The position numbers and the translations under genes are program-made. Below, in pieces: positions 7,662-53,469 of a stretch of 64,000 bases of DNA. The notes below the pieces were generated by a model, which did not search any database, was not told the origin of the DNA, and worked only from the letters and a program-made list of their open reading frames with translations. Source of the DNA: Eubacteriales bacterium (GTDB lineage Bacteria; Bacillota; Clostridia; Oscillospirales; QAKW01); assembly GCA_045544255.1 (NCBI GenBank), contig JAZPYP010000072.1, positions 41,764 to 105,763 on the forward strand, in the 5' to 3' direction. The number at the start of each line of letters is the position of its first letter. The stretch's first letter is position 1.

Positions 7662-8444
7662 ATGAAAGAATTTACGGTTCAATATAAATATCGGTATACT
7701 CCCGCTCCCGATTTCGGAGAAACCTCTCTCCATACCCATCGGCAATATGAAATTCTGCACCTAATCTCGGGCAATGCAGATCTTTTGCTGAGGGGTGAGA
7801 GGATCCCTCTCTTTCCTGATGCTCTTTTGCTAATCCCGAAAGGGGCAGAACATCATATACACCTTTTGGATTCTGCCCCCTTCACCCGAGCGGTGATCAA
7901 TTTCGAAAATCTTCCTTCGGAGATTGCCAACGAGCTCTTTTCCCGCCCGCGGGTTTTGCAGATCGAAGAGGATCAGCGGATCAAGCGGGTTTTGGAAACG
8001 ATGCGGGACTATAGCGAATATTTCGATCGGGAGACCCGCACGCTTTCTCTGGCATTATCCACCATGGAGCTGATGCTTTTGCTGCAAAAGGGAGCTTTAA
8101 AAGAAACCCCCGCTGCCCAATATGGTTTTTTTATGGAGCGGGCGCTGCGCCATATCGAAAAGCATCTTGCCGAGATCGAAGATATTGCCCATCTTTGCCG
8201 CGCTCTGCATATCAGCCGCGCCCAATTATATCGAGAATTTAACGGAGCGATGGGAATCAGCCCCAAGCAATATATCAACCAAAGGCGCCTGCAGGCGGCG
8301 CGGGAACTATTGCTGCTGGGAGAGGAAGCAACCCGCGTGGCGGAGCGGTGCGGATGGCGGGATTATTCCACCTTTTACCGCGCCTATCGGCAGGAATTTG
8401 CCTGCTCTCCCGCCCGAGCCAAGCAAGGAGAAAAGTCCAAATAG
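7662..8444 (+). CDS. AraC-family transcriptional regulator
   Basis: 260 aa with an N-terminal cupin and a C-terminal double HTH (ISPKQYINQRRL...). Divergent from the nagB-nagA-DUF4838 operon. Confidence 0.85.
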   Translation: MKEFTVQYKYRYTPAPDFGETSLHTHRQYEILHLISGNADLLLRGERIPLFPDALLLIPKGAEHHIHLLDSAPFTRAVINFENLPSEIANELFSRPRVLQIEEDQRIKRVLETMRDYSEYFDRETRTLSLALSTMELMLLLQKGALKETPAAQYGFFMERALRHIEKHLAEIEDIAHLCRALHISRAQLYREFNGAMGISPKQYINQRRLQAARELLLLGEEATRVAERCGWRDYSTFYRAYRQEFACSPARAKQGEKSK

Positions 8445-8464
8445 AAAAGGAGCAAACTGTTCTT

Positions 8465-8522
8465 CCCTTTCCCCTTTGAGCGCACCTTTGAATTTTTAAA
8501 GGCTATCCTGGCAAAGTTATAA
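8465..8522 (+). pseudogene. relic copy of the last ~58 nt of pepD
   Basis: Aligns to 3761..3819 with 5 mismatches and one 1-nt indel, including the stop codon. It is followed by its own terminator. Confidence 0.75.
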
Positions 8523-8558: not shown

Positions 8559-8607
8559 TTCACTCTTCACTATTCACTATTCACTATTCACTATTCACTC
8601 TTCACTA
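8559..8607 (+). repeat. 7 tandem heptads TTCACT[A/C]
   Basis: Read directly: TTCACTC TTCACTA x4 TTCACTC TTCACTA, contiguous and all direct. Confidence 0.95.
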
Positions 8608-8790: not shown

Positions 8791-8901
8791 GGATTTCCTC
8801 TTAAAAGTAAAATATTGTCCTATAATTATATCAATTATTGCTAGAAAAGTTAAATATGATGCTATATAATAAATTTGAATGATAAACGGGAGGATCGACT
8901 A

Positions 8902-11273: not shown

Positions 11274-11303
11274 GATATCATGGTATCATGATATCATAAT
11301 ATC
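11274..11303. repeat. TGATATCA octamer array, 4 degenerate copies
   Basis: GATATCA TGGTATCA TGATATCA TAATATC, read directly. Intergenic. Confidence 0.9.
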
Positions 11304-11705: not shown

Positions 11706-11731
11706 AAGATATCATGATATCATGATATCTT
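11706..11731. promoter_or_regulatory. 26-bp perfect palindrome (3 octamers) placed as the operator of the RHH gene
   Basis: AAGATATCATGATATCATGATATCTT starts 6 nt downstream of the -10 hexamer, covering the predicted transcription start site (TSS) and early 5' UTR. Confidence 0.6.
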
Positions 11732-15163: not shown

Positions 15164-15667
15164 TTATTGAACTTTATCGCCGGGAATCGTATTCCAAACA
15201 ACAGCTTCGAATTGAGTGGTGCCGGTAGAAAGGGTATGGGTGGATCCATTCAGCATGGAAGCACCGTTTACATAGCGGCCCTTATCTTCATAATAACGCT
15301 CGGTTTCGATCGTTACCAATACATCATAGCGCAGCGCCCGCTCAATGGCCTGATAGGAACCATCGGGCATCAGCGTATCTTCCTTATGCTTTTCGATCTC
15401 TACCTTTTTGATCACACCGAGCTTCTTATTCCCCTCATAAAGGGGATCGCCTTCTTTGATGCTCATGGCAACCTGCTCCCGAAGATCGCTGCCCTGCAGC
15501 TTGATCTCGGCATGATGATATTCCACCGAAGGCGCCGGCTCCCCTTCCGGTTTGCTCCATGGCTTCGTTACCAAAAGGAGCCCGCCCACCAGCAAAACTG
15601 CCAGAGCGATCAGATCGAAAAGGTTGATCTTGCCGAACACGCGGCCTCTTTCATCTAAAATCTTCAT
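15164..15667 (-). CDS. DUF4330-like single-pass membrane protein
   Basis: 167 aa. N-terminal GKINLFDL plus a TM helix. Paralogous to the upstream gene, with a 4-nt overlap. Confidence 0.55.
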   Translation of the reverse strand: MKILDERGRVFGKINLFDLIALAVLLVGGLLLVTKPWSKPEGEPAPSVEYHHAEIKLQGSDLREQVAMSIKEGDPLYEGNKKLGVIKKVEIEKHKEDTLMPDGSYQAIERALRYDVLVTIETERYYEDKGRYVNGASMLNGSTHTLSTGTTQFEAVVWNTIPGDKVQ

Positions 15668-16161
15668 TTTGATCCTCCTTCTTCAATCTTTTCGATGGCG
15701 CAGATTTTTGCAGTAACCCTGCATTTTTCGGTTTCGGGATAGATGGTTTCGCCGATGATCAGCTTTGAGCCGTCTACCAAGAACTTTCCGTGCTCTTTTC
15801 GGCCCATTACCCGAACCTGCACCTCAACAGTCTTCTTTTGCGGGGATACCACTTCGCGGTAAATCCCCGCATTCTCATCATAGACCTCGGTTACCTTATC
15901 TTTAAGGCGCAGGGTTACAATCTCGCCCAATTCTCCCGATTGCTCATAAAAATAGAGGATATCGCCGATCTTCAGATCATTATAAGGATCTTCCATGCGT
16001 TGAGTACTCTGCAACGTTACAAGATACGGCTCTGATTCCTTCCCTTTAACAGGGGCCTTTTCCGGCTCCTCTTTGGTAAAGAGCCAAAGGCCGCCCACCA
16101 GCAGCAGCGCCACCAGCACCACGCAAAGGCCATGAACCCAATTAAGTTTGCCCTTAAGCAT
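15664..16161 (-). CDS. DUF4330-like single-pass membrane protein
   Basis: 165 aa, same architecture as 15164..15667. Confidence 0.55.
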   Translation of the reverse strand: MLKGKLNWVHGLCVVLVALLLVGGLWLFTKEEPEKAPVKGKESEPYLVTLQSTQRMEDPYNDLKIGDILYFYEQSGELGEIVTLRLKDKVTEVYDENAGIYREVVSPQKKTVEVQVRVMGRKEHGKFLVDGSKLIIGETIYPETEKCRVTAKICAIEKIEEGGSK

Positions 16162-16320
16162 TGGAAAAACCTCCTTAAGGCACCCCTCTTCTCGCGGGGC
16201 ATCAATTTTTTCTTATATTTATTATATTCTACCATATCCTCCCGCTCAATTCAATAAATATCAAGATTTTTCCAAATAAAAAAAGGAAGCCCAACATGCG
16301 GCGTTGAGCTTCCTTCCTTG

Positions 16321-17949
16321 TTAATAAATATAATGATAGGGATTTACCGGCGTTCCGTTGATCCGGATCTCAAAATGAAGATGGGGGCCGGTGCTTCGGC
16401 CGGTGGAGCCGATTCTTGCGATCTGCTGCCCTTGGGCCACATATTCGCCCACCGAAACAAGATTTTCGCTATTATGGGAATAAACCGTTACAAACCCATT
16501 CCCATGGCGCACGCGGATCACCTTGCCATAAGCGCCATCCCAGCCGGAGAAGATCACAGTGCCGCCGGCGGAAGCATAGATCGGCTTTCCGTAAGCGCCG
16601 CTCATGGAAAGATCCATGCCCTTATGGCCGCGGCCATCGCCCATATAACTTGTGATAATGCAGCGGCGGCCGATGGGATGAATGAAGGGGCTGCTGCCCG
16701 CATCGGAAGAAAAGCTGGTAGGCCATTTTTTGGTGCCCACATAAAGCTCTCTGGTTACCGGCTCTTTGGTTACCTTGGAGGAAAGGATCTTGGTTTCTGC
16801 CTTCTCCCCATCAATATAGGTTACCTCGGCGGTAATGGCCCGCACACCCTTCTGGCCGGCCACCTTCACCTTGGTTTGATTTAAATAAAGATCATCGCTG
16901 GCAATACGCTTGGTTGTATAAGAAATGCTTTCCTTATAAGATATGGTGCGCACAACCTTAACCCCAAGATAAACATCCGGCTCCGAGATCACCACTTTTC
17001 TGCCGGGGATCAGGCGGGTTTCATCCAATTCGGGGTTCAAATAATAAAGCATCTTGCGGGAAACACCGGTTTTCTCCACAATATCGCTCAGATAATCATC
17101 TTCCTCAATGGTATAATATTGGGGATCGGTGGAGCCGGCAAAAAGCTGCCGAAGCTCATTGGCATCCTTCATATCCGAGGGGGAAAAGAGCCCGTTGCGG
17201 ATCTCCACATCGCTCATAAATTCCACCCGCTCATTCTTAACTCCCGTTTCGAAGGGGGCTTTGAGCTCATCCAAAACCATTTGAATGGTTTCCGCCTTTT
17301 CGGCGGCGGCCACCAATTCGCCATCCACATAAAGGCCGAAATGGTTGCCGATCTCTTCGGTTACTGCCCGATAAGCCTGCACATAAAGGTTTTCCTCATC
17401 GGTCATCTTATTCTTGCGCACCAGAACAAATTTATATTCCGGCGCGGTATACATGCAATAGTTTTCCCCAAGAGTGGTGGCAAGGTCTTTTTCCACCTGC
17501 GTTACCGCAGAGGTAAATTCCCGCTCGTTTTTCACATAGGAGACAACCTTTCCATCTACCGATACTTCCAGCGCAACAGCATTATTTCCAAAAAAGAGCC
17601 CCACGCTGATCAGCATCACCAAGCAGAAAACCGGCGCCCAATAGCTGAAATCATGAACCAGGCTATGAGCCAGCCATACCACTACCCGCTGGGTGCCGCG
17701 GCCAATGGCGATGGAAATCTTCATTACCCGCTCCCCTAAAGAGCAGATCCATTCGAATACATTCTTCGGAGTGCAGGTTTTCAAAAACCGAATCACCGGC
17801 AGAAGAGTATACCGAAATGCAAAGATAAATAGGCTCTCAATAATCAGCCCGATCCAATAAATGAACCGCACAACAGCCATCAAGGCCGCGCCGAGCCCAC
17901 GCTTTTCCGCTCTGATTGCGCTTTCCAAAAACTTACACCTCCCTTTCAA
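16321..17949 (-). CDS. M23 peptidoglycan metalloendopeptidase with LysM and G5-like domains
   Basis: C-terminal M23 motifs HKGMDLS and GPHLHFE. LysM-like YTIEEDDYLSDIVEKTGVS. N-terminal TM helices. Confidence 0.8.
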   Translation of the reverse strand: MKGRCKFLESAIRAEKRGLGAALMAVVRFIYWIGLIIESLFIFAFRYTLLPVIRFLKTCTPKNVFEWICSLGERVMKISIAIGRGTQRVVVWLAHSLVHDFSYWAPVFCLVMLISVGLFFGNNAVALEVSVDGKVVSYVKNEREFTSAVTQVEKDLATTLGENYCMYTAPEYKFVLVRKNKMTDEENLYVQAYRAVTEEIGNHFGLYVDGELVAAAEKAETIQMVLDELKAPFETGVKNERVEFMSDVEIRNGLFSPSDMKDANELRQLFAGSTDPQYYTIEEDDYLSDIVEKTGVSRKMLYYLNPELDETRLIPGRKVVISEPDVYLGVKVVRTISYKESISYTTKRIASDDLYLNQTKVKVAGQKGVRAITAEVTYIDGEKAETKILSSKVTKEPVTRELYVGTKKWPTSFSSDAGSSPFIHPIGRRCIITSYMGDGRGHKGMDLSMSGAYGKPIYASAGGTVIFSGWDGAYGKVIRVRHGNGFVTVYSHNSENLVSVGEYVAQGQQIARIGSTGRSTGPHLHFEIRINGTPVNPYHYIY

Positions 17950-21678: not shown

Positions 21679-21821
21679 AAATTTTCTTCTTTCCTATCAA
21701 GATGCTATCATTATACGATTTTAAAGAAGGAAAATCAACTGATTTATTCCTTAAATTATTGTAAATTATAAAAATCTATTGTATAATAAAAAAGATAAAA
21801 TTGTTGAAAAGGGTGAACCCG

Positions 21822-22367
21822 ATGAAAAAAAGATTTTTTGCTCTGTTTTTAATTGTTGTTTTGCTTCTCTCCTGCGGTTGCCATAAAGCCACTCAAGAGG
21901 GATATAAGCTTTTCCGCTCCTCGCCCATGGGCTATTCCATCGAATATCCGGAATATTGGCAAAAGGCTTCCGATCTGAAGGAAAAGGTGGCTGTTTTTGT
22001 AACTCCCATGGAGGGCTATAGCGATGAATTTATCGAAAAGGTTTCGGTTCAGCAAATAATTCCCGATGCCAAAGCCGAGGGAACCTTTGATGAATATGTA
22101 AAGGGCTATACCGCCGACCTTGCCAAAAAGATTCATAACTATAAGTTGGTAAGCGAGCAGGAAACCAAGCTGGGGGGCGAAGATGCCTACCGCATTGTTT
22201 ACGAAAGCTCTTCCGATGATGGCAAGGAGACCTTCCGCTTTATGCAGATCTTTGCGCAGCACGGAGATGCTTTTTATACCGTGATCTATCAAGCGGATTT
22301 TGTTTCTTTTGCCTATTTCCTTCCCGCGGTGGAAACCATGCTCTCCACCTTCACCTTCCTTAAATGA
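21822..22367 (+). CDS. putative lipoprotein
   Basis: ATG at 21822 gives MKKRFFALFLIVVLLLSCGC, a signal peptide with a lipobox-like Cys. The track start at 21801 is TTG. Confidence 0.6.
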   Translation: MKKRFFALFLIVVLLLSCGCHKATQEGYKLFRSSPMGYSIEYPEYWQKASDLKEKVAVFVTPMEGYSDEFIEKVSVQQIIPDAKAEGTFDEYVKGYTADLAKKIHNYKLVSEQETKLGGEDAYRIVYESSSDDGKETFRFMQIFAQHGDAFYTVIYQADFVSFAYFLPAVETMLSTFTFLK

Positions 22368-23227
22368 TGGAGGATTGGATCGATGTTGCGGCCCTGCTGA
22401 AGCAGTACGGCCTTCATACCAATAAGAATTTGGGGCAAAATTTCCTGAAAGACCGCTCTGTTTTGGAGCAGATCTGCCAAGGGGCGCTCCCCTTTGGCAA
22501 GGAAGGAATTTTAGAGATCGGCGCCGGAGTGGGGAGCCTTACCGCTCTCCTTTGCGAAGAGAGCGAGCAGGTGCTGACCGTTGAGATCGATGAAAGCCTG
22601 AAGCCCCTCCTTTTGGAGCAGGTGCCCCATCAAAATCATCAATTTTTATGGAAAGATATCCTTGCCTGCGATTATTCTGCCCTGCGCGGGGAATACTTTT
22701 CGGGAAAGCCCTTCACCATTGTTGGAAATTTGCCCTATTATATCACCGCCGAGATCCTTGATCGCCTTTTTCTTTCCGCCGATTGGAATTGCGCGGTGCT
22801 GATGGTGCAAAAAGAAGCGGCAGAGCGGCTTTTAAGCCGCCCCGGCAGCAAGGAATATCGGGCCCAAGGGGTTTTTCTTCAGGCCTTTTATGAGGGGGAG
22901 CTTCTCTTCGAAGTGCCGCCCCATTGCTTTCAGCCTGCCCCCCATGTCCGGAGTGCTGTGATCCGCTTGCTGCCCAAGGAGCCGCCGGTGGAAGATCGGG
23001 TTGGTTTTGCCAAATTTTTAAAGAGCGCCTTCCTCTCCCGCCGCAAGATGTTTGCCTCCTCTAAAGCGGTGCAGCAGCAGCTTCGCCGCTCCAGAGAGGA
23101 GCTTTCCGAAATTCTACGCTCGATAGGAATCGAGGAAAATGCCCGCGCAGAAACCTTTTCCCCCGATCAATTTGCGAAAGTATACAATCTTGCACAAAAG
23201 AACTTTCCCCAATCTCTTGAACTTTAG
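22364..23227 (+). CDS. rsmA: 16S rRNA (adenine1518/1519-N6)-dimethyltransferase
   Basis: NLGQNFL and EIGAGVGSLT motifs. 287 aa. Confidence 0.9.
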   Translation: MMEDWIDVAALLKQYGLHTNKNLGQNFLKDRSVLEQICQGALPFGKEGILEIGAGVGSLTALLCEESEQVLTVEIDESLKPLLLEQVPHQNHQFLWKDILACDYSALRGEYFSGKPFTIVGNLPYYITAEILDRLFLSADWNCAVLMVQKEAAERLLSRPGSKEYRAQGVFLQAFYEGELLFEVPPHCFQPAPHVRSAVIRLLPKEPPVEDRVGFAKFLKSAFLSRRKMFASSKAVQQQLRRSREELSEILRSIGIEENARAETFSPDQFAKVYNLAQKNFPQSLEL

Positions 23228-23307: not shown

Positions 23308-25089
23308 ATGACCACCAAGAACCAAGCATTATTGACCTGGATCGACGAAATGGCCGCCATCACCAAACCCGAAAAGATCGTTTGGATCGATGGTAGCGAA
23401 GAGCAGCTCGAAGCCCTGCGCGCCGAGGCTTGCTCCACCGGCGAGATCGAAAAGCTGGATCAAGAGAAGCTGCCCGGCTGCTATCTCCATCGCACCGATC
23501 CTCTGGATGTAGCCCGTGTTGAAGACCGGACCTTTATCTGCGCCCGCACCGAAAAGGATGCAGGCCCCACCAATAACTGGATGGACCCCAAGAAAGCCTA
23601 CGAAATGATGTATGGCCTGTTTGATGGCTCCATGGAAGGCAAAACCATGTATGTCATCCCCTATAGCATGGGCGTTATCGGCTCTCCCTTCTCCAAGATC
23701 GGTATTGAGCTGACCGATAGCATCTATGTTGTTTTGAATATGCATATCATGACTCGTATCGGCGCTAAAGTGCTGGAAGCACTGGGCGAAGGCGAGTTCG
23801 TTAAGGGCCTCCATTCCAGAGCCCAGATGGATGCTTCCAAGAAGTATATCATGCATTTCCCCGAGGATAATACCATTATGTCCGTAAACTCCGGTTATGG
23901 CGGCAACGTTCTCCTTGGTAAAAAGTGCTTCGCTCTGCGTATCGCTTCCTATCTTGGTAAGAATGAGGGCTGGATGGCTGAGCATATGCTGATTCTGGGC
24001 GTTGAGAATCCCGAAGGCGAAACCCGCTATATCTGCGCCGCCTTCCCCTCTGCCTGCGGTAAGACCAATCTGGCGATGCTGATCCCCCCCGAAGGCTATG
24101 CGAAGAAGGGCTATAAGGTATGGTGCGTGGGCGATGATATCTCCTGGCTGCGCATCGGCCCCGATGGCCGCCTCTATGCCATGAACCCCGAGAACGGCTT
24201 CTTCGGCGTTGCCCCCGGCACCAACGAAAAGTCCAACCCCAACGCTCTTGCTTCTACCATGAAGAATACCATCTTCACCAACGTTTGCCATACTGCTGAT
24301 AATAACGTTTGGTGGGAAGGCCTTAATAAGGAGCTGCCTGTCAATGCCATCGACTGGAAGGGCGATCCCTGGGATCCCGCAAAGTTTGTGAAGAGCGATA
24401 AGAGCACCTGCGCTGCTCATCCCAATAGCCGCTTCACCGCTCCCGCCGAGAATTGCCCCTGCATCTCCAAGGAGTTCAATAACCCCAATGGTGTGCCCGT
24501 TGATGCTATCGTATTCGGCGGCCGCCGCGCTAAAACCGCTCCCTTGGTTTATCAGTCCTTCGATTGGAACCATGGTGTGTTCGTAGGTTCTATCATGGCT
24601 TCTGAGACCACCGCTGCTGCTGCAGGCGCTGTTGGCGTTGTTCGCCGCGATCCTATGGCTATGCTGCCCTTCTGCGGCTATAATATGGGCGACTATTTCG
24701 CCCACTGGATCGAGATGGGTAAGAAAATCCCCCATGCTCCCAAGATCTTCAATGTTAACTGGTTCCGTACCGACGATGAAGGCAACTTCATCTGGCCGGG
24801 ATTTGGCGATAACCTCCGCGTTCTGGAGTGGATCCTGAACCGCTGCGCCGGTAAGGCCGATGCAGTAGAAACCGAGATCGGCTACCTGCCTAAGGCTGAA
24901 GATATCAATATCGAAGGCCTCGAGGATATCACCGTGGATACCATTAAGGGCCTCCTCTCTGTGGATAAGGACCTTTGGAAGGAAGATATCGTAGGTATCA
25001 AAGAGTTCTACTCTAAGTTTGATAAATATGATACCCTCCCCGCCGAACTCAAAAAAGAGCTGGCTGATTTCGAAGCCCGCCTCGGCTAA
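23308..25089 (+). CDS. pck: phosphoenolpyruvate carboxykinase (GTP-dependent type)
   Basis: 593 aa with GTP-PEPCK motifs (AAFPSACGKTNLAM, WMAEHMLILG). Confidence 0.9.
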   Translation: MTTKNQALLTWIDEMAAITKPEKIVWIDGSEEQLEALRAEACSTGEIEKLDQEKLPGCYLHRTDPLDVARVEDRTFICARTEKDAGPTNNWMDPKKAYEMMYGLFDGSMEGKTMYVIPYSMGVIGSPFSKIGIELTDSIYVVLNMHIMTRIGAKVLEALGEGEFVKGLHSRAQMDASKKYIMHFPEDNTIMSVNSGYGGNVLLGKKCFALRIASYLGKNEGWMAEHMLILGVENPEGETRYICAAFPSACGKTNLAMLIPPEGYAKKGYKVWCVGDDISWLRIGPDGRLYAMNPENGFFGVAPGTNEKSNPNALASTMKNTIFTNVCHTADNNVWWEGLNKELPVNAIDWKGDPWDPAKFVKSDKSTCAAHPNSRFTAPAENCPCISKEFNNPNGVPVDAIVFGGRRAKTAPLVYQSFDWNHGVFVGSIMASETTAAAAGAVGVVRRDPMAMLPFCGYNMGDYFAHWIEMGKKIPHAPKIFNVNWFRTDDEGNFIWPGFGDNLRVLEWILNRCAGKADAVETEIGYLPKAEDINIEGLEDITVDTIKGLLSVDKDLWKEDIVGIKEFYSKFDKYDTLPAELKKELADFEARLG

Positions 25090-25102
25090 TCTAAAATATC
25101 AA

Positions 25103-25139
25103 AAATCCCGAAATGCAACCTGCATTTCGGGATTTTTTT
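25103..25139 (+). terminator. pck terminator
   Basis: AATCCCGAAATGC-loop-GCATTTCGGGATT followed by TTTTTT. Confidence 0.85.
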
Positions 25140-25189
25140 ATCCTCTCGCCCTCAAATCATTTGGATCCTCACACTTTAATCCGCCAACC

Positions 25190-25453
25190 GCACAATTCAT
25201 TTGTGCACCTCAACCATTTCTACCTACCCGCACAAATCATTTGTACACCCCATCTCATTTCTGCGTAGCCGCACAATTCATTTGTGCACCCTAACTCATT
25301 TCTACGTAGCCGCACAAATCATTTGTACACCCTAACTCATTTCTGCGCAGCCGCACAATTCATTTGTGCACCCCATCTCATTTCTGCGCAGCCGCACAAT
25401 TCATTTGTGCGCCCTAACTCATTTCTGCGCAGCCGCACAAATGATTTGTGCGG
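25190..25453 (+). repeat. tandem array A: 8 copies of a 41-bp unit
   Basis: GCACAA starts at 25190, 25230, 25271, 25312, 25353, 25394 and 25435 (steps 40,41,41,41,41,41). Consensus GCACAATTCATTTGTGCACCCTAACTCATTTCTGCGCAGCC. Confidence 0.95.
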
Positions 25454-25509
25454 GTGGATTGATTTTTGAAGAAATTTATGTTATTCTTTAAAAAAAGGAT
25501 GTGATACAA

Positions 25510-25818
25510 ATGGATCAAGCAGTATTTGCACAGAGGTTAAAACAATTACGAGCACAAATGGGCGTCAGTCAGCATGAAATGAGCAAGAAATTAGGTCTTA
25601 CTCAAAACTACATCTTCAACATTGAATCCGGTTACGCCTATCCCTCCATGACCAATTTTTTTGCCATTTGTTCCTATTTAGACGTTACGCCGGAGGAATT
25701 TTTCTCCTTTGGAGAAAATCCCGATGACCAAGTACAGGAGCTTCTTTCCGTTACCCGCAATTTTTGCGGGGAAGACATGGCTCATCTGATTGATTACGCC
25801 ATCAAAATGAAATGGTGA
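25510..25818 (+). CDS. XRE-family helix-turn-helix protein
   Basis: FAQRLKQLRAQMGVSQHEMSKKLGLTQNYIFNIESG is a classic Cro/C1 HTH. The ATG at 25510 follows AAAGGA (GTG at 25501 also possible). Confidence 0.8.
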   Translation: MDQAVFAQRLKQLRAQMGVSQHEMSKKLGLTQNYIFNIESGYAYPSMTNFFAICSYLDVTPEEFFSFGENPDDQVQELLSVTRNFCGEDMAHLIDYAIKMKW

Positions 25819-25904
25819 AAGCTTTGCATAAACGCGTGTGCGTATTTTTAACCAAAAATAAATGAGATTTGGTTTCAAGTCAGACATTTTCGGAGAAAGA
25901 CACC

Positions 25905-26342
25905 ATGGATTATTCCGCTTTTGCAGATAAACTTACAAAATTCATTCCTCTCCCCATGACGGTTTTAGGCATCCTTTTTATTGGGTTGCTGATCTTTTTA
26001 TTCATTGCCTTGAAAATGAAATTTCTCAAGGAATCCTGGATTTATTTAGTCTGCGGTTTTATTGGGATTGTTTTGGCTTATTTCTTCACCATTTACCCCG
26101 TTCAGAAGGATATCCGGGAGAAAACCTATATCGAATATCACAGGAACTTTATTATTGACGAATATTACTTCACAAGTCGAAGCAGTTCTTCCACCATGAT
26201 GATTCGCTTTTCCCCATCCGAAAAAGCTGAAAAATTCAAAACCATTGAGGAATTTCACGAAATTACGCTGGGGAAAATTTATCAGGGAACCATCTGCTAC
26301 GGAAAACATTCGAAAATGATTATCGAAATAGAAATAAAATAA
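25905..26342 (+). CDS. hypothetical 2-TM membrane protein
   Basis: ATG at 25905. Two hydrophobic helices, then a ~80-aa soluble tail. AT-rich codon usage unlike its neighbours. Confidence 0.5.
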   Translation: MDYSAFADKLTKFIPLPMTVLGILFIGLLIFLFIALKMKFLKESWIYLVCGFIGIVLAYFFTIYPVQKDIREKTYIEYHRNFIIDEYYFTSRSSSSTMMIRFSPSEKAEKFKTIEEFHEITLGKIYQGTICYGKHSKMIIEIEIK

Positions 26343-26383
26343 AGATTTCTTTCAATCATGATATAAACTGCTTTTAGAGCTAC

Positions 26384-26415
26384 AGCCGCACTTTTTGATG
26401 CGGCTATTATTTTTG
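26384..26415 (+). terminator. terminator after XRE/membrane gene pair
   Basis: AGCCGCA-loop-TGCGGCT followed by ATTATTTTT. Confidence 0.55.
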
Positions 26416-26478
26416 CTTCAAAATCCGTTTTATCGGACTTTATCTATGATAAAATACCCCTAAGCAAAAAGGGTAGTG

Positions 26479-26495
26479 AAGCACAGATTGTGCTT
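26479..26495. promoter_or_regulatory. 17-bp perfect palindrome abutting the recA -35
   Basis: AAGCACA-GAT-TGTGCTT. Its last 2 nt are the first 2 nt of the TTGATT -35 hexamer. Confidence 0.5.
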
Positions 26496-26522
26496 GATTT
26501 CTTTTTGCAAATATTATATAAT
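26494..26522 (+). promoter_or_regulatory. recA promoter
   Basis: TTGATT - 17 nt - TATAAT, 43 nt upstream of the recA ATG. Confidence 0.65.
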
Positions 26523-26565
26523 TATTATATATGTAGAAAAGTTGGAAAAAAGGAGATTTTTCAAA

Positions 26566-27669
26566 ATGGCTGATAAGAAGGACGCATTAGCAAAAGCGCT
26601 GGAGCAGATTGAAAAGCAATTTGGCGAAGGCGCGGTAATGAAGCTTGGCGATAATAAGCATATGAACGTTGGTGTGATTCCCACCGGTTCTCTTTCTTTG
26701 GATTTAGCGTTGGGAATCGGCGGTGTGCCCAAGGGGCGCGTGATTGAAATCTACGGACCGGAGAGTTCCGGTAAAACCACCGTTGCTCTTCACATTGCCG
26801 CAGAGGCCCAAAAGGCCGGCGGCACGGTTGCCTTTATTGATGCGGAGCACGCGTTGGATCCTGTTTATGCTTCTGCTTTGGGTGTCAATGTGGATGAACT
26901 TTTGGTTTCTCAACCGGATTATGGCGAGCAGGCCTTGGAGATCACCGAGCAGTTGGTGCGCTCCGGTGCTATCGACTTGGTAGTTGTGGACTCGGTTGCC
27001 GCATTGGTTCCCCGCCACGAAATTGAGGGCGAGATGGGCGACAGCCATGTTGGCCTGCAGGCCCGCCTGATGAGCCAAGCGCTCAGAAAGCTGACCGGCG
27101 TTTTGGCCAAGAGCAACTGCGTTGCCATCTTTATCAACCAGCTTCGGGATAAGGTAGGCGTGATCTACGGCAGCAGCGAAACCACCACCGGTGGACGGGC
27201 GCTGAAGTTCTATTCTTCGGTTCGGATCGATGTGCGCCGCACTGAAACCCTGAAGGCCGGCACCGAGATGATCGGAAGCGCCACCAAATGCAAAATTGTG
27301 AAGAACAAGGTTGCTCCCCCCTTCAAGACTGCCACTTTCGACATTATGTATGGCGAGGGCATTTCCAAGGAAGGCGAGCTTCTGGATCTTGGCGAAAAGC
27401 TCAAGCTGGTGAAGAAGAGCGGCGCATGGTTCTCTTATAAAGAGATGCGCATCGGCCAAGGCCGCGATAATGCAAAGAATTTCCTTCGGGAGAATTTGGA
27501 GATTGCCGCCGAGTTGGAGAAAGCAATCCGCGATAATTTTGATACCCTGCGGGAGATGGACAGCAAGGTAAAGAGCCCCAAGAAGAAGGCCGCTACCCCT
27601 GCGGAGGCCCCTGCCGAGGAAGTTAAACCCGCGGTTTCTTTAGATGTTTCCGCTGATGACTTTGAATGA
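26566..27669 (+). CDS. recA: recombinase RecA
   Basis: [20 protein letters not shown]..., Walker [19 protein letters not shown] before the ATG at 26566. The track start at 26476 is an AT-rich upstream extension. Confidence 0.95.
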
Positions 27670-28291
27670 TCAACCTCTTATCACCGATCTGCTCCCCAAT
27701 GCGGAAGATCCTTCCAAACGGGATATTTATATCGACGGGGATTTTTATCTGACGGTTCCCTATCTTTTTCTGCTGGAGCAGGATCTTCATATCGGGGATC
27801 CCTTCGGGCAGGAAGAGGAGGAACGGCTGCTGATGGCCGCCCAGCTAACCCTTGCAAAGGAAAAGGCCTATCAATATTTAGGCTACGGGGATCTCTCCTT
27901 CAAAAAGCTTTATGAAAAGCTTACCCGCTTCGGCATCGAAGAGCGAGTGGCGGAGCGGGCTTGCCGGATTCTGGAAGAGCAAGGGCTGATCGACGATCGG
28001 CGCCTTGCGGAGCATTTAGCCCATCGCCTTTATGAAGGAAAGCATTATGGCCCCAAGCGGATCCTGCCCGAACTTTGCCAAAAAGGCATTCCGGCGGAGA
28101 TTGCAAAAGAGGCGGTTGATGCCCTTCCAAAGGAAGATGAGATCCATCTTTCCTATTGGATGGAGCGCAAATACGGGCGCTTCGATCTTTCTGATCCCAA
28201 AGAGCGCAATAAGGTTTTTCAAGGGCTTTGCCGCTATGGCTTTTCCTTTGATGAAATTAATCATGTTTTAAAGGATTTTATGGATGACTAA
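27644..28291 (+). CDS. recX: recombination regulator RecX
   Basis: 215 aa helical-repeat protein immediately after, and overlapping, recA. Start could be the ATG at 27644 or 27656. Confidence 0.7.
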
Positions 28292-29609
28292 AGTCGCATT
28301 TATCGGCCTCGGCTGTGAAAAAAATATTATTAATACAGAGAAGATGATGGCCACCTGCCAAAATGCAGGCTTTACCCTCACCGATGAGCTGGAGGGGGCA
28401 GATGTTGCCATCATTAATACCTGCGGCTTTATTGAAAGCGCAAAGGCGGAAGCCTTGGAAACCTTTTTTGAGGTAGCCCAGCTTAAAGCCGAGGGCAAGG
28501 TGAAAAAAATTCTTCTTGCCGGCTGCCTGGTGCAGCGCTATCAAGAGGAGATCGCAAAGGAACTGCCGGAGGCCGATGGCTTTATCGGCGTTGGCAGCTT
28601 TCAGAATGTGGCCGATGCGGTAAACGCAGTGATGGCAGAGGAGGCGGTTGCCGCCTTCGGGCCGGTGGAAGACCTGCAGCTGGAAGGGGATCGCATTCTT
28701 ACCTCTCCTACCGCCACCTCCTATCTTAAGGTGGCCGACGGGTGCTCCAATAAATGCGCCTATTGCTGCATTCCCCTTATCCGCGGCCCCTTTAAAAGCC
28801 GCCCTATGGAAAATATTATTAATGAGGCCAAAAAGCTTGCGGCGGAGGGCACCCGCGAGCTGATCTTAATTGCTCAGGATACAACAAATTACGGCTTTGA
28901 TCTTTATGGAGAGCGCAAGCTCTGCGCTCTATTAAAAGAGCTGGTAAAGATCGATGGGCTTCAATGGATTCGGCTTCTCTACCTTTACCCCGATAAGGTA
29001 ACCGAAGAGCTGATCGATCTGATGGCGAAGGAAGAAAAGATCCTTCCTTATGTGGAAATGCCGATCCAGCATGCGGCGGGCCCTGTGCTGAAGGCGATGA
29101 ATCGCCCCGGCGATGATCAAAGCCTTTTAAGGACCATCGAAGATTTTCGAAAAAAACTCCCTCAGATCACCCTGCGCACCACCCTGATTGTGGGATTTCC
29201 GGGGGAAACGGAAGAAGATTTTGAAACCCTTTGCAATTTTGTTCGCAAGGCGAAATTTGATAAACTGGGTGTTTTCACCTTCTCGCCCGAAGAGGGCACT
29301 CCTGCCTTTGAGATGGAAGATCAGATCGAAGAGGAAGTGAAGGAGCGGCGGCAAGAGATCCTGGAGATGATTCAGGCCGAGATCATGGAAGAAAAGCAAT
29401 CCGCCCTGATCGGTCAGGAGCTTACTGTTTTGGTGGAAGGCTATGATCGGTTCGGCGAATGCTGGTTTGGCCGCAGCTTTATGGAAGCCCCCGATATTGA
29501 TGGCAAGATCTTTTTTACTGCCGAGGAGCCGATGCAGATCGGAGCCTTTGCGCAGGTGGAGATCAGCGATGTGATCGATTTCGATTTAATGGGCTTTGCC
29601 AAAGGCTAA
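28284..29609 (+). CDS. rimO: ribosomal protein S12 methylthiotransferase (radical SAM MTTase)
   Basis: N-terminal UPF0004 domain (FIGLGCEKN), radical SAM CSNKCAYCCIP, C-terminal TRAM. Confidence 0.75.
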   Translation: MTKVAFIGLGCEKNIINTEKMMATCQNAGFTLTDELEGADVAIINTCGFIESAKAEALETFFEVAQLKAEGKVKKILLAGCLVQRYQEEIAKELPEADGFIGVGSFQNVADAVNAVMAEEAVAAFGPVEDLQLEGDRILTSPTATSYLKVADGCSNKCAYCCIPLIRGPFKSRPMENIINEAKKLAAEGTRELILIAQDTTNYGFDLYGERKLCALLKELVKIDGLQWIRLLYLYPDKVTEELIDLMAKEEKILPYVEMPIQHAAGPVLKAMNRPGDDQSLLRTIEDFRKKLPQITLRTTLIVGFPGETEEDFETLCNFVRKAKFDKLGVFTFSPEEGTPAFEMEDQIEEEVKERRQEILEMIQAEIMEEKQSALIGQELTVLVEGYDRFGECWFGRSFMEAPDIDGKIFFTAEEPMQIGAFAQVEISDVIDFDLMGFAKG

Positions 29610-29635
29610 AATTTAAAATTAAAGGAGAATGATCC

Positions 29636-30232
29636 ATGAATTTACCAAATAAACTCACCCTTTTGCGGGTGATCATGATTCCCGCTTTTGTGGCAGTTAT
29701 TTTGCTGGTGCCTGCCCCCTTGGGCCCTGTGATCGGCGCCGCCATCTACGCTTTGGCTTCTATTACCGACGCTCTCGACGGGCATCTGGCAAGAAAGCAT
29801 AATTTAGTTACCGATTTTGGCAAGTTTCTGGATCCCTTGGCCGATAAAATGCTGGTGATCTCTGCTCTGGTGCTGCTTCAGCATATGGGGCTGATCCATC
29901 CGGTTATTACCATTATCATCATTGCAAGAGAACTGATGGTTACCTCTATCCGCCTTATCGCCGCAAGCAGCGAGGGCAAGGTGATCGCTGCCGGCTGGTG
30001 GGGAAAGGCAAAAACAGTTACCCAAATGATCGCCACCCTGCTTTTGATGGTGGAGCCGGTTCTGCTGGGGCAGATCGAATGGGCTTGGAAGATTCCCTTC
30101 CTTACCGGCGCAACCCCCGAAACCACCGCCGCTATCGGCACCGCCCTTCTTTATGTGGCTACTCTGCTGACGATTATTTCAGGCATGGATTATCTTATTA
30201 AAAACTGGAAATACCTCGATTACCGTAAGTAA
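29636..30232 (+). CDS. pgsA: CDP-diacylglycerol--glycerol-3-phosphate 3-phosphatidyltransferase
   Basis: CDP-alcohol phosphatidyltransferase motif DALDGHLARK...DPLADK. Confidence 0.85.
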   Translation: MNLPNKLTLLRVIMIPAFVAVILLVPAPLGPVIGAAIYALASITDALDGHLARKHNLVTDFGKFLDPLADKMLVISALVLLQHMGLIHPVITIIIIARELMVTSIRLIAASSEGKVIAAGWWGKAKTVTQMIATLLLMVEPVLLGQIEWAWKIPFLTGATPETTAAIGTALLYVATLLTIISGMDYLIKNWKYLDYRK

Positions 30233-30239
30233 AAAAGTA

Positions 30240-30275
30240 AAACCGCCGATGGAACATCGGCGGTTTGCTTTTTTA
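30240..30275 (+). terminator. pgsA terminator
   Basis: AAACCGCCGATG-loop-CATCGGCGGTTT followed by GCTTTTTT. Confidence 0.85.
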
Positions 30276-30300
30276 TTAAATCCCATCTTTTTACCTTCCC

Positions 30301-30895
30301 GCACAATTCATTTGTGCACCCTAACTCATTTCTTTGCCGCCACACAATTCATTTGTACACCCTAACTCATTTCTGCGTAGCCGCATAATTCATTTGTACA
30401 CCCTAACCCATTTCTGCGTAGCTGCACAATTCATTTGTGCACCCCAACCCATTTCTGCGCAGCCGCACAAATCATTTGTACACCCCCAACCCATTTCTGC
30501 GCAGCTGCACAATTCATTTGTACATCCTAACCCATTTCTGCGCAGCCGCACAATTCATTTGTACTCCCTATCCCATTTCTGCGCAGCCGCACAATTCATT
30601 TGTGCACCCTAACCCATTTCTGCCCAGCTGCACAATTCATTTGTGCACCCCAACTCATTTCTTTGCCGCCGCACAATTCATTTGTACACCCTAACCCATT
30701 TCTGCGCAGCTGCACAATTCATTTGTACACCCTAACTCATTTCTGCGCAGCCGCACAATTCATTTGTACACCCCAACTCATTTCTGCGCAACCGCACAAT
30801 TCATTTGTGCACCCCAACTTATTTCTGCGCAGCCGCACAATTCATTTGTGCACCCCAACTCATTTCTTTGCCGCCGCACAATTCATTTGTGCACC
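30301..30895 (+). repeat. tandem array B: 15 copies of the same 41-bp unit
   Basis: Unit starts at 30301, 30342, 30383, 30424, 30465, 30507, 30548, 30589, 30630, 30671, 30712, 30753, 30794, 30835 and 30876 (all steps 41 except one of 42). Same orientation as array A. Confidence 0.95.
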
Positions 30896-30951
30896 TGATT
30901 TCTTTGCAATGATCAACCCAAATCATTTGGGTTTTGGGGTGATTGACATTT

Positions 30952-30980
30952 TTTGAGGAGAGGTGTATACTTTTTGAGAA
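30952..30980 (+). promoter_or_regulatory. promoter of riboswitch-DUF4430 operon
   Basis: TTGACA - 17 nt - TATACT. Confidence 0.6.
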
Positions 30981-30986
30981 GCGAAG

Positions 30987-31290
30987 CTATGCTTTTCTTG
31001 GCAGGGCATAAATGCCTTGCCGCAAGGAAGAGGGGTGAGATTCCCCCGCGAACTCGTCGCCGTGATAGGTGAGGGTTCTCCCTGAAATGCCACTGAGGAA
31101 GCGATTCCTTGGGAAGGCGGGAGAAACCGCAATCAGCCTTCAGCCGGAATATTTGGAGCATAGAAAAATCCATAAGCTTGCTACGAGTGCTTAGCCTTTC
31201 AATAAGGGCTCTGCTGCCGGCAGAGGGCAGCGAAGGCTTTATGGGAAGCAGAAAAGGGCTTTTTGGATTTCCCGCTTTAGAAAATTTAAA
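30987..31290 (+). promoter_or_regulatory. cobalamin (B12) riboswitch leader
   Basis: Conserved cobalamin-riboswitch blocks in the expected order: GGGGTGAGATTCC, GCCACTG (31098..31104), GGGAAGGC (31120..31127) and a B12-box-like CAGCCGGAATATTTGG. The downstream genes are types commonly under B12 riboswitches. Confidence 0.65.
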
Positions 31291-31302: not shown

Positions 31303-31695
31303 ATGAGCAAAAAGCAAAAGCTGCTAACGATCGTTGGCGGCGTCATTCTGATTGCCCTTGCGGCAGTTGCTTTGCTCCTTTGGAATGGTTTCTCTGCCAA
31401 GCCGGAAGAAGGAAATAAGCAAATTACATTTGAACTGATCGATAAAGACGGCAGTTCTAAGGAATTCAGCATCAAAACCGATGCCGAATATTTGGCAGAT
31501 GCCTTGGTAGAGGAAAAGCTGATCACCTACGATAAAGGCGGCCTTTATACCACCATCAACGGCATCACCTGCGATTGGGAAAAAGACCAAGCCTATTGGG
31601 CCATTTCCATCGACGGGGAATATGCGATGGTTGGCATGAATGAGATTCCCATTAAAGATGGGGGACATTATGAAGCAACCTATACAAAAGGGTAA
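31303..31695 (+). CDS. DUF4430 (transcobalamin-like) membrane-anchored binding protein
   Basis: 130 aa with an N-terminal anchor and a DUF4430-like core (YWAISIDGEYAMVGMNEIPIKDGGHY). Confidence 0.6.
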   Translation: MSKKQKLLTIVGGVILIALAAVALLLWNGFSAKPEEGNKQITFELIDKDGSSKEFSIKTDAEYLADALVEEKLITYDKGGLYTTINGITCDWEKDQAYWAISIDGEYAMVGMNEIPIKDGGHYEATYTKG

Positions 31696-32176
31696 GGCCC
31701 TGCAGGATCTGACCGCTCTGGCGGTATTTGCGGCGCTATTGATCGCGGTGCAGGTGGGGCTTTCTTTTCTGCCAAATATAGAGCTGGTTACACTATTGAT
31801 TATTTTAATGACCAAGCGCTTTGGCTGGAAGAGCATGCTCTCTGTTTGGGTATTTGTTTTGGTGGAAGGGCTGATCTACGGAGTGCACATTTGGTGGATC
31901 AATTATCTTTATATCTGGCCCCTTTTGGTGATTTCAGTTTTGCTTTTCAAAAAGCTTGATCATCCCCTGCCCTTTGCAATTCTGGCGGGAGGCTATGGGC
32001 TGCTCTTCGGCACCCTTTGCTCCATTCCCTATTTTTTAACCGGCGGCCTTGGGGCAGGCTTTGGCTATATAATCAGCGGCATTCCCTTTGATCTGATCCA
32101 TTGCATCAGCAACTTTTTATTGGTGCTGCTTCTTTATAAGCCTCTGACCTTTACCTTAAATAAGATTCTGCATTAA
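31670..32176 (+). CDS. putative ECF-transporter S component (possible cobalamin-specific, CbrT-like)
   Basis: ~168 aa with 5-6 TM helices. ATG at 31670 after a GGGGGA SD, overlapping the DUF4430 end. Sits behind a B12 riboswitch. Confidence 0.45.
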   Translation: MKQPIQKGKALQDLTALAVFAALLIAVQVGLSFLPNIELVTLLIILMTKRFGWKSMLSVWVFVLVEGLIYGVHIWWINYLYIWPLLVISVLLFKKLDHPLPFAILAGGYGLLFGTLCSIPYFLTGGLGAGFGYIISGIPFDLIHCISNFLLVLLLYKPLTFTLNKILH

Positions 32177-41681: not shown

Positions 41682-43046
41682 TTAATAGGATTTTTTGATA
41701 TTTTCAGTCAGCTCCGCAACAATTTTGGTAATATTGGGATCCTGCTTAATGGCATCTTCCAGCTGGCGGATATTATAAAGAACAGTGGTATGATTTTTTC
41801 CGCCCATTTCCTTGCCGATCTCCGGCAAAGAAAGATCGGTATTTTCGCGGATCATATACATAGCCATTCTTCTTGCCGGCATAATATCGCCGCTTCTCTT
41901 TTCCCCTTTGATCTGCTCGGGGGTAACATTATAATAGCGGCAAACATGGTCGATGATGGAGGCGGGAGTAACAGCATTTTTGGTATGATCCCAAACCACG
42001 GCTTCCATTGCGGTTTTGGCAAGGGCGATGGAAGGAGTTTGGCCCCAAAGGGAATTATAAGCTTTAAGCTTTTTAATGGTGCCCTCCAGCTCCCGAATAT
42101 TGGTTTTGATTTTTGAAGCGATCAGCTCGGTAACCTCATCGGAGATATTCAGGTTATAAAGCTTGGCCTTTCTTTTAATGATCGCCACTCTGGTTTCGTA
42201 TTCAGGGGGCTGCACATCTGCGATCAAGCCCATAGAAAAGCGGGATTGAAGCCGCTCTTCCAAAGTAACCAGCTCTTTGGGAGGCCGGTCGGAGGTTAAA
42301 ATAATCTGCTTCCCTGCTTCATAGAGGGCATCAAAGGTATGAAAAAGCTCCTCCTGAATGGCATTTTTACCGCTGATGAACTGCACATCGTCCATCAGCA
42401 GCATATCGGCCATGCGGTATTTATTTTTAAATTGCCGCTGGGCATTATGCTGAATGGCATCGATCAGCTCGCTGGTAAATTCATCGCCCTTCACATAGAG
42501 GATCTTCATCTCCGGATGCATCTCTTTGATCTTATTGGCAATAGCATTGATCAGATGGGTTTTGCCAAGGCCGCTATGGCCATAAAGGAAGAATGGATTA
42601 TAGGCCGAGGCGGGATTATTGGCAATGGCCAAGGCTGCTGCATGGGCAAATTCATTTTCCTTGCCGATAACGAAATTTTCAAAGGTCAGATTGCTTTTGG
42701 CATCAAAGGCTCTGAATTCCTGGTCTACCTGCTCCAGCATGGAGGAGGTTACCTCTTCATTCTTTTTTTGGGCCGCTTCGCGGAATCCGGGGGGCACTTC
42801 CTCTTCGGTCATCACCTTCATCTCAACATCAAAGCCGATGGAATCGGAAATAGCCTCTTCGATCTGGGTTTTATATTTTTTATCAATAATACTCTTTTGA
42901 AAAAGAGTTGACACGCAAAAATAAGCGGTATCGTTTTCCATTTTCATGGGAATCAGCAGCTTGATCCATGTTTCAAAAGAAGTGGAATTCAAATCATGCT
43001 CCAGCTTCATAAGCGCTTTATCCCAAACATCCTTAAATGATTGCAT
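41682..43046 (-). CDS. dnaA: chromosomal replication initiator DnaA
   Basis: 454 aa. Walker A GHSGLGKTHL, and a C-terminal DNA-binding helix region. Confidence 0.95.
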   Translation of the reverse strand: MQSFKDVWDKALMKLEHDLNSTSFETWIKLLIPMKMENDTAYFCVSTLFQKSIIDKKYKTQIEEAISDSIGFDVEMKVMTEEEVPPGFREAAQKKNEEVTSSMLEQVDQEFRAFDAKSNLTFENFVIGKENEFAHAAALAIANNPASAYNPFFLYGHSGLGKTHLINAIANKIKEMHPEMKILYVKGDEFTSELIDAIQHNAQRQFKNKYRMADMLLMDDVQFISGKNAIQEELFHTFDALYEAGKQIILTSDRPPKELVTLEERLQSRFSMGLIADVQPPEYETRVAIIKRKAKLYNLNISDEVTELIASKIKTNIRELEGTIKKLKAYNSLWGQTPSIALAKTAMEAVVWDHTKNAVTPASIIDHVCRYYNVTPEQIKGEKRSGDIMPARRMAMYMIRENTDLSLPEIGKEMGGKNHTTVLYNIRQLEDAIKQDPNITKIVAELTENIKKSY

Positions 43047-47414: not shown

Positions 47415-47444
47415 TTTTGATATCATGATATCATGATATCAAAA
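47415..47444. repeat. 30-bp perfect palindrome, 3 TGATATCA octamers
   Basis: TTTTGATATCATGATATCATGATATCAAAA, identical to 57239..57268. Lies between two convergent terminators. Confidence 0.95.
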
Positions 47445-53342: not shown

Positions 53343-53469
53343 TAAGCGGATCTTTTTGGCTCTTTTTCCTTTTTCCTCACTCGGCGTATCAATATACGCC
53401 TTCGTTCGGAGAAAAGAAAAAATAACTCAAAAATCTCTCGCTTATTATGATCGCTTAATAGTAGAAAAT

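Follow-up and report, generated by a model that had tools for sequence, protein, structure and literature searches.

Tandem 41-bp arrays beside an XRE-family regulator gene and the recA cluster of a Eubacteriales bacterium: putative operator arrays of the regulator

Organization of the locus

The subject of this work is a pair of tandem arrays, array A and array B, in a 64-kb stretch of contig JAZPYP010000072.1 from a Eubacteriales bacterium (the whole stretch is called the window below, and positions are those of the window). Both arrays are built from the same 41-bp unit in the same orientation. Tandem Repeats Finder (TRF) placed array A at 25188-25451 (+ strand, period 41, 6.5 copies, 88% matches) and array B at 30299-30895 (+ strand, period 41, 14.5 copies, 89% matches). 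One unit of array B is 42 bp long, and no further copies of the 41-bp unit were found in the 64-kb window. The 4848 bp between the two arrays carry a gene for an XRE-family helix-turn-helix (HTH) regulator, a gene for a 145-amino-acid protein, recA, recX, rimO and pgsA, with Pfam matches to HTH_3/XRE, RecA, RecX, RimO-type radical SAM and CDP-alcohol phosphatidyltransferase. The TRF and Pfam results and the gap of 4848 bp confirm the arrangement described in an initial annotation of this DNA, namely arrays in the same orientation about 4.85 kb apart that enclose the XRE/membrane-protein pair and recA-recX-rimO-pgsA. The features of the locus are as follows.

23308-25089, + strand: phosphoenolpyruvate carboxykinase (PEPCK) gene, upstream of array A
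25101..25146, + strand: Rho-independent-type terminator of the PEPCK gene (hairpin 25101-25137, 17 pairs, and T run)
25459..25487, + strand: putative XRE promoter, TTGATT-17-TATTCT
25510..25818, + strand: XRE/Cro-C1-type HTH regulator, 102 aa (Pfam HTH_3)
25905..26342, + strand: hypothetical protein, 145 aa, hydrophobic near the N-terminus, no Pfam match
26566..30232, + strand: housekeeping cluster of recA (26566-27669), recX (27644-28291), rimO (28284-29609) and pgsA (29636-30232)
30240..30275, + strand: terminator after pgsA (hairpin 30240-30266, 12 pairs, and T run)
30943..30971, + strand: promoter of the riboswitch-controlled operon, TTGACA-17-TATACT (11/12 matches)
30979..31170, + strand: cobalamin riboswitch (Rfam RF00174, 58.9 bits)
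31303-31695: DUF4430 gene (Pfam), 3' of the cobalamin riboswitch

Both arrays are intergenic and have the layout terminator-array-promoter. A terminator-like hairpin lies 30-50 bp before the start of each, so that the earlier statement that each array begins just after a terminator holds for A and B alike (hairpins with T runs at 25101-25137 and 30240-30266). The PEPCK terminator hairpin was called on the minus strand; its stem is palindromic and the plus strand has a T run of its own. The putative XRE promoter was read from the sequence and lies below the threshold of the promoter scan, and it is conserved in two related lineages (L145 and L147).

The genes between 21.8 and 32.2 kb are those for a PsbP-like protein, KsgA, PEPCK, the XRE protein, the 145-aa protein, RecA, RecX, RimO, PgsA, the DUF4430 protein and a 178-aa open reading frame (ORF; 31640-32176) that has no Pfam or NCBIfam match. 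Farther downstream, dnaA lies at 41682-43046 on the minus strand as part of dnaA-dnaN-recF-gyrB-gyrA (43046-34277, minus strand). The arrays are 10.8-17.6 kb away from dnaA; they are origin-proximal, as had been noted, with this measured range in place of the 12-18 kb given before.

Contigs of the same species, located by exact-protein look-up, allowed the locus to be compared between strains. Contig L002 is exactly the A-to-B segment and ends inside both arrays. Contig L007 (10.7 kb) runs from the PEPCK gene to pgsA with array A fully assembled, and then enters array B. Gene calls in both agree with the recA-recX-rimO-pgsA cluster. Array A has 8 sites in the window vs 11 in L007, which encodes an identical XRE protein; the comparison of copy number in related strains that the initial annotation had proposed thus does reveal a difference. 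From L002 and L007 we conclude that the arrays are no assembly artefact, that their arrangement is common to the strains and that their copy number varies. Three more contigs of the species, L001, L003 and L004, were uninformative on array B. They carry an insertion sequence with rve and HTH_Tnp_1 transposase genes in the loop of the pgsA terminator (3765-5370 in L001, contig ends in L003 and L004), just ahead of the position that corresponds to the start of array B in the window, and past this insertion their sequence is unrelated.

Repeat unit and palindromic core

The consensus of the unit is CCGCACAATTCATTTGTaCACCCTAACTCATTTCTGCGCAG. It contains a 17-bp near-palindrome, GCACAAwTCATTTGTrC, and the half-site-like sequence TCATTTCTGCGCAG, which gives the TRF sub-periods of 18 and 23. 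The core of the near-palindrome is the 11-bp CAAwTsAwTTG. CAAWTSAWTTG is present in 23 copies in the 64 kb, compared with 0.6 expected by chance, and all 23 lie in or at the arrays, in register. Three copies that appeared to be solo (25153, 25438 and 30919) also proved to be in register. Counted with the flanking copies, array A has 8 sites at 40-41-bp spacing and array B has 16, that is 15 in the array plus a terminal one. The sites at the array ends are listed below.

25153..25163: leftmost degenerate site of array A, CAAATCATTTG, in register, 40 bp ahead of the array's first full unit
25433..25453: last copy of array A, the promoter-proximal perfect 21-bp palindrome CCGCACAAATGATTTGTGCGG, proposed as the primary operator
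30917..30931: terminal site of array B, CCCAAATCATTTGGG, in register 40 bp after the last unit

The leftmost site is conserved in strain L007. The centre of the promoter-proximal palindrome (25443) is 15 nt before the XRE -35, and the array units are less symmetric than this site. The centre of the terminal site of array B is 18 nt before the -35 of the riboswitch operon, and its arms are of the type found in lineages L146, L147 and L179.

Units differ from one another by about 10%, both within and between arrays. Identical polymorphic columns occur in A, in B and in the second strain, and no unit type is common to an A and a B array. The description of the arrays as near-identical direct repeats does not stand up to alignment, since the best in-register identity of A and B is 84% and their longest exact common run is 49 bp. 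Of the proposal that both arrays end at a homologous junction which supplies the -35 of the next transcription unit, one part is borne out in that a promoter follows each array. The similarity of the two right junctions is weak: their local alignment score of 21 is reached by 2.5% of shuffles and by 0.9% of other windows of the same sequence.

Like mycobacterial and other minisatellites or variable-number tandem repeats (VNTRs), the arrays are head-to-tail, intergenic and of different copy number between strains. They are not of the clustered regularly interspaced short palindromic repeat (CRISPR) type; the units are contiguous without spacers, and no cas genes were present among the ORFs scanned. 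Rfam gave no match over the arrays; its sole match in the window, at 30979-31170, is the cobalamin riboswitch.

The XRE protein and its family

The XRE protein matched PF01381 (HTH_3) with 57 bits against a cut-off of 23 (E = 2e-15), and its recognition helix is LTQNYIFNIE. An AlphaFold2 model (mean confidence score pLDDT 84) has a 5-helix HTH followed by 2 C-terminal helices. Among solved structures, C.BclI (38% identity over the HTH) and C.AhdI, both controller proteins, come nearest, followed by 3ivp, SinR and ClgR, and the neighbours in the PDB are of XRE type throughout. This is a dimeric-type HTH protein that is nearest to self-regulating controller proteins, which fits a role of the arrays as operators.

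At E<=1e-8, 7 relatives were found among 5.8e9 proteins. A profile search revealed a large family of proteins of about 101 aa that is split by the recognition helix into a small YI[FY]NIE group, to which the window protein belongs, and a large QSxGYINNIE group. The YI[FY]NIE helix was present in 3 of the 149 best matches from a library of 1.84 billion representatives. The relatives are named as metagenome-assembled genomes (MAGs) of "Clostridia bacterium" and "Oscillospiraceae bacterium". NCBIfam, PADLOC and PHROGs gave generic XRE matches, all under the curated cut-offs. In plasmids and phages, tblastn detected no more than distant relatives of the XRE protein (identity at most 35% over the full length and at most 49% over part of it), so there is no sign of a plasmid or phage origin.

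The 145-aa membrane protein was considered as a partner of the XRE protein and rejected. Its gene is beside the XRE gene in the window species only, and because it is absent there in every other lineage, it is probably not part of the XRE module.

Linkage of the arrays to the XRE gene

An array lies directly upstream of the XRE gene in 10 of the 10 YI[FY]NIE lineages that were looked up, at 49-100% protein identity to the window protein. Those besides the window are given here with XRE identity, units, palindrome and context.

L007: identical XRE protein, another strain; 41-bp units, 11 sites
L145: 86% identity; 41-bp units; palindrome TGCACAAT.CATTTGTG; contig of 921 bp
L146: 84% identity; about 44 bp x 8; ACCCAAATGATTTGGGT; behind PEPCK gene and terminator, like the window
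L147: 80% identity; about 44 bp x 4; ACCCCAAATGATTTGGGGT; behind an AraC-type gene
L010: 70% identity; 43 bp x 7.7; ACACAAATGATTTGTGT; diverging from recA
L179: 54% identity; 46 bp x at least 10.7; ACCCCAAATCATTTGGGGT; recG 4 kb downstream, contig begins inside the array
L181: 52% identity; 46 bp x 3.7 and about 39 bp x 4.6; two arm types; citrate-lyase neighbourhood
L015: 50% identity; 42 bp x at least 6; TACCAAATCATTTGGTA; unrelated context
L182: 49% identity; about 7 sites; CCGCACAAATGAATTGTGCGG; diverging from recA

When the consensus units of these lineages were aligned on the palindrome centre, conservation was confined to the 11-bp core, which is retained in nearly every unit. The 3-5 positions that flank the core on each side are symmetric and lineage-specific, and the remainder of the unit, including its length (38-46 bp), has been turned over between lineages. 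Six lineages (the window, L145, L146, L147, L010 and L179) have a perfect 21-bp palindrome as the copy nearest the promoter, and the centre of this copy is 14-16 nt before the -35 in these six and in L015.

Relatives of the sister subclade, of the YINNIE type, had no such repeats: P0007 (46% identity) is without an array, and so are 31 loci on viral contigs where YINNIE-type relatives are encoded. The array of L010, like that of L182, has the recA promoter on one side and the XRE promoter on the other, the two diverging. Transcripts are not expected at such a place, which argues for a role at the DNA level rather than the RNA level.

A remote array without an XRE gene was found in L179 (3666-4154, 46 bp x 10.2). 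It has the arm type of a second XRE paralogue, P0006, from the same two samples, and is flanked by a terminator on one side and the next gene's promoter on the other. This remote array is interrupted by CCCCAATATTTTTGGGG palindromes. Between it and an Na/Ala symporter gene (3540-3640, minus strand) are three short GC-rich hairpins, each followed by CATGAATTG.

Searches of other sequence collections were made with the unit itself. Two consecutive units gave two matches in a genome collection, both called unrelated: a 2-copy 54-bp repeat in Dorea phocaeensis, and a single match in a MAG contig of a Nitrososphaeraceae archaeon. The strict unit pattern had no match in JGI metagenomes and viral contigs. 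With a relaxed core-pair pattern, two matches in viral contigs were judged to be chance, and at least 120 loci, mostly of 2 copies, were found in metagenomes. Among the metagenome matches listed, seven were real core-containing arrays (L126, L082, L143, L112, L074, L064 and L054). None had an XRE homologue nearby by hmmsearch and several look non-bacterial, and they were treated as unrelated repeats.

Array B and the recA neighbourhood

The XRE-array module stands beside recA-recX-rimO-pgsA in three lineages, the window, L010 and L182. In L010 (70% identity) the order pgsA, riboswitch, DUF4430 gene is kept, the riboswitch follows pgsA directly and no array lies between them; in L182 there is likewise no array after pgsA. 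Array B is therefore read as a later addition in the window lineage and plausibly is a secondary copy of A. This much of the earlier idea that the loci arose by duplication of an array-plus-promoter module is in keeping with the related lineages. As the right junctions are weakly similar and B ends in a site of another arm type, 18 nt and not 15 nt before a consensus -35, a wholesale duplication of array plus promoter is no more than a possible origin of B.

The arrays had also been thought to be organised around recA. What they track is the XRE gene, in 10 of 10 lineages, and in at least three lineages the module occurs without recA. Between the window and L182, RecA is 86% identical and the XRE protein 49% identical, for which reason the adjacency to recA looks like inherited synteny, although a regulatory link of the module to recA may exist as well. 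There was no supporting sign of the RecA-dependent or slippage-mediated deletion or amplification that had been suggested for the bracketed segment: no contig with an A-B junction was seen among a handful of contigs, and L002 and L007 keep the arrangement. Excision of the segment would take out pgsA and recA.

Several other features were seen around recA. At 26479-26493 the palindrome AGCACAGATTGTGCT abuts the -35 of the recA promoter (TTGATT, 26494). Its outer arms, GCACA/TGTGC, are those of the array palindrome, while its centre is 3 nt vs 7 nt long. On visual inspection, the recA promoters of L010 and L182 lack it. The whole 64-kb window is free of LexA (Cheo) boxes of the form GAAC-N4-GTTC. 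L010 carries lexA (LexA_DNA_bind and Peptidase_S24) between the PsbP-like gene and ksgA (15632-17613); their window counterparts (21801-22367 and 22364-23227) overlap, with no lexA at this place. L010 also has an 11-bp repeat, TTCAAAGTGGT, in 3.5 copies at 9518-9556, in the stretch that separates the recA promoter from the array linked to the XRE gene.

Comparison with known systems

In formal terms, the arrays come closest to sopC of the F plasmid, where SopB binds the 16-bp inverted repeat contained in each of 12 direct 43-bp repeats (PMC3177203). Like sopC, the arrays consist of many tandem units of about 41-46 bp with one palindromic site each, beside the gene of the presumed binder. In sopC the binder SopB is of the ParB family and has the ATPase partner SopA, and the site is on a plasmid, downstream of sopB; here the protein is a 102-aa Cro/C1-type HTH protein with no NTPase partner, and the array is chromosomal, upstream of the gene, and ends at its promoter. 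No binder of the ParB, ribbon-helix-helix (RHH; ParR/ParG) or TubR type was found, the adjacent DNA-binding protein being HTH_3/XRE, and there was no ParA, ParM or TubZ NTPase among the window genes from 21.8 to 32.2 kb or in the related loci.

The omega arrays of pSM19035 are heptad arrays with many binding sites upstream of promoters, including that of the regulator itself (PMC9499535). Like the omega arrays and the ParR/parC iterons, the present system has several arrays per replicon, and regulation and a higher-order complex would be combined. The omega and ParR systems differ in having contiguous 7-11-bp repeats, RHH proteins, a ParA or ParM partner and a plasmid location.

Like the controller proteins of restriction-modification (R-M) systems (C.BclI, C.AhdI, C.Esp1396I), which are small HTH dimers that autoregulate via palindromes at or upstream of their own -35, the XRE protein would act from a palindrome near its promoter. 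The C-boxes of controller proteins are two adjacent palindromes, and the genes lie in R-M operons. Here there are instead 8-16 sites at about 41-bp spacing, and the protein has two extra C-terminal helices. A C-box of two palindromes (OL and OR) is absent; one perfect palindrome is 15 nt upstream of the -35, together with 7 sites, none of which overlaps the -35. No R-M genes flank the XRE gene in the window or in nine other lineages.

Mycobacterial interspersed repetitive units (MIRUs) share with the arrays an intergenic location, tandem units of 40-100 bp, the presence at more than one locus and copy-number variation between strains. MIRUs are not known to be tied to a particular regulator gene, nor to have a conserved palindromic core found together with one protein subfamily.

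Synthetic tandem decoys (PMC3322331) and natural dispersed decoy sites for response regulators (PMC8599769) sequester factors and reshape the dose-response, and a titration role of the arrays has experimental precedent in both. Those systems are synthetic or made of dispersed single sites, whereas here a tandem array stands beside the gene of the factor itself. In topical literature searches we found no natural, conserved tandem decoy array beside the factor's gene in bacteria and no description of a conserved module of XRE gene and operator minisatellite; a search with the motif string gave primers only.

Proposed function of the arrays

We think it probable that the arrays are tandem operator arrays of an autoregulated regulator, the 102-aa XRE protein encoded beside array A. 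This is proposed because the palindromic core is conserved, the link to one DNA-binding subfamily is constant and the register to the -35 is fixed. That the XRE protein binds the sites we infer from sequence, and the sign of regulation and the purpose of the many copies are likewise inferred. Each 41-bp unit would offer one palindromic site, with the core CAAwTsAwTTG and lineage-specific symmetric arms, that suits an HTH dimer. The perfect 21-bp palindrome about 15 nt before the XRE -35 would be the primary autoregulatory operator, and the upstream units would be slightly degenerate copies of it, about four helical turns apart, that load many more dimers. If the protein works like the controller proteins, the weak TTGATT/TATTCT promoter may be activated, or at the least autoregulated, by a dimer that sits just upstream of its -35. 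The extra units may form a cooperative nucleoprotein array, serve as a reservoir that titrates the regulator, or both; of the mechanisms considered, cooperative loading and titration are the two most likely. The two extra C-terminal helices may mediate dimer-dimer contacts, as in SinR.

Array A would be part of a module, conserved within a small clade of uncultured Clostridia, that consists of array, operator, promoter and XRE gene. Array B, with the same sites, would be a second array that the window lineage acquired later, after the pgsA terminator and before the promoter of the B12-riboswitch operon; it may either bring this promoter under the XRE regulator or merely add binding capacity. 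The arrays would behave as minisatellites, and the bracketing of recA would be a by-product of where the module lies.

Several points weigh against the proposal of tandem operators. The terminal site of array B is 18 nt from the -35, not 15, and its arms differ. The proteins P0001 and P0004 have identical recognition helices and yet the arms GCA vs CCC, so the obvious residues fail to explain arm specificity. The spacing of 38-46 bp across lineages means that strict helical phasing is not conserved. Symmetric changes of the arms are also expected of a hairpin or cruciform, and replication slippage alone could expand an operator-containing unit to 8-16 copies. The data cover one 64-kb window and short contigs.

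The slippage argument, taken to its end, would make the arrays a neutral minisatellite, in which a single real operator lies in a unit prone to slippage or unequal crossing-over and B is a copy transposed or duplicated by chance. The change from 8 to 11 sites between strains, the divergence of about 10% between units with mosaic polymorphisms common to arrays and strains, the lower symmetry of the array units relative to the promoter-proximal site, and the absence of array B in related lineages all agree with it. We nevertheless consider it unlikely, since an array is present in 10 of 10 lineages at 49-100% protein identity despite complete turnover outside the core, and since the core is kept in nearly every unit where neutral arrays should have been lost or decayed in some lineages. 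About equally unlikely is that the XRE protein and its arrays are an undescribed chromosomal nucleoprotein device tuned by copy number, either a titration or bistability element or a centromere-like or anchoring landmark that does without ParB; 8-16 operator copies near the origin and beside recA would then load tens of regulator dimers. A centromere-like landmark in the narrower sense, with XRE dimers on origin-proximal arrays serving segregation, anchoring or domain insulation in the manner of sopC/SopB or RacA/ram, seems quite improbable to us. The resemblance of the 41-46-bp tandem units with one inverted repeat each to F sopC (PMC3177203), the distance of 10.8-17.6 kb to dnaA, the presence of the module near gyrA in L009-L012 as well, and the occurrence of several arrays per genome are in line with such a landmark. 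That the terminal site keeps a fixed distance from the -35 points instead to control of transcription, neither a partner of the ParA, ParM or TubZ type nor a protein of the ParB fold is adjacent to the plain Cro/C1 HTH protein, and in other lineages the modules are in unrelated contexts.

The two remaining explanations are very improbable in our estimation. If the direct-repeat arrays were recombination substrates that let recA-recX-rimO-pgsA be amplified or excised, their common orientation at 4.85 kb, the exact common runs of up to 49 bp and the recurrence of the XRE-array module beside the recA cluster in the window, L010 and L182 would be accounted for. A second array is, however, found in the window lineage only, and excision would cost the cell pgsA and recA. 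The gene pgsA is normally essential. The contigs of other strains show the arrangement intact, arrays occur equally at XRE genes far from any recA, and the RecA and XRE identities of 86% vs 49% fit synteny. The arrays might also act as hairpins in RNA or single strands, as a structured transcript or an element like the repetitive extragenic palindromic (REP) sequences that stabilises or terminates RNA. A hairpin of 6-8 bp is possible in each unit, the arms change symmetrically between lineages, and the common G-to-A variant (GTGCAC to GTACAC) would stay paired as G-U on a minus-strand transcript. But the arrays lie after terminators and before promoters, and in L010 and L182 between diverging promoters; on the loop side, the core has kept its sequence and not just its pairing; and Rfam has no match apart from the neighbouring riboswitch.

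Other repeats in the window

The window contains further repeats. The 22-mer GATATCATGATATCATGATATC, which is (GATATCAT)x3, occurs in intergenic DNA at 11274-11303, 11708-11729, 47419-47440 and 57243-57264, exactly in three of the four places and with 0 expected by chance. The neighbouring genes include those for GH3, APH, Jag/KhpB, GH20, AraC and Na/Pi-PhoU proteins, and the 22-mer has the look of another dispersed element, operator-like or repetitive. At 53469-53619, immediately upstream of and over the listed start of mnmG/gidA, 3.4 copies of an AT-rich 43-bp repeat (TATAAATATAAATTTTTATAA...) are located. The heptamer array (TTCACTA)x7 at 8559-8607 is upstream of the GH3 gene 8875-11148. 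A 62-nt direct repeat (3758-3819 and 8461-8522) is 85% identical between its copies, both of which end in TAA. In the first copy this TAA is the stop codon of ORF 2437-3819, and the repeat may represent a C-terminal coding segment that is shared; the other copy is downstream of ORF 7662-8444, outside the listed ORFs.

Significance

The arrays break short-read assemblies at the recA locus in this clade, which matters for the completeness of MAGs and for the use of recA as a marker. If the XRE protein binds the units, the locus would be a natural, evolutionarily maintained amplification of an operator into a copy-number-variable array beside the regulator's own gene, with a second array elsewhere. 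Up to now, synthetic arrays have been the main system in which repeated factor sites were studied for decoy and titration effects. With one 102-aa protein and one 21-bp palindrome, the module would be compact and testable, and the number and spacing of sites could be related in it to autoregulation.

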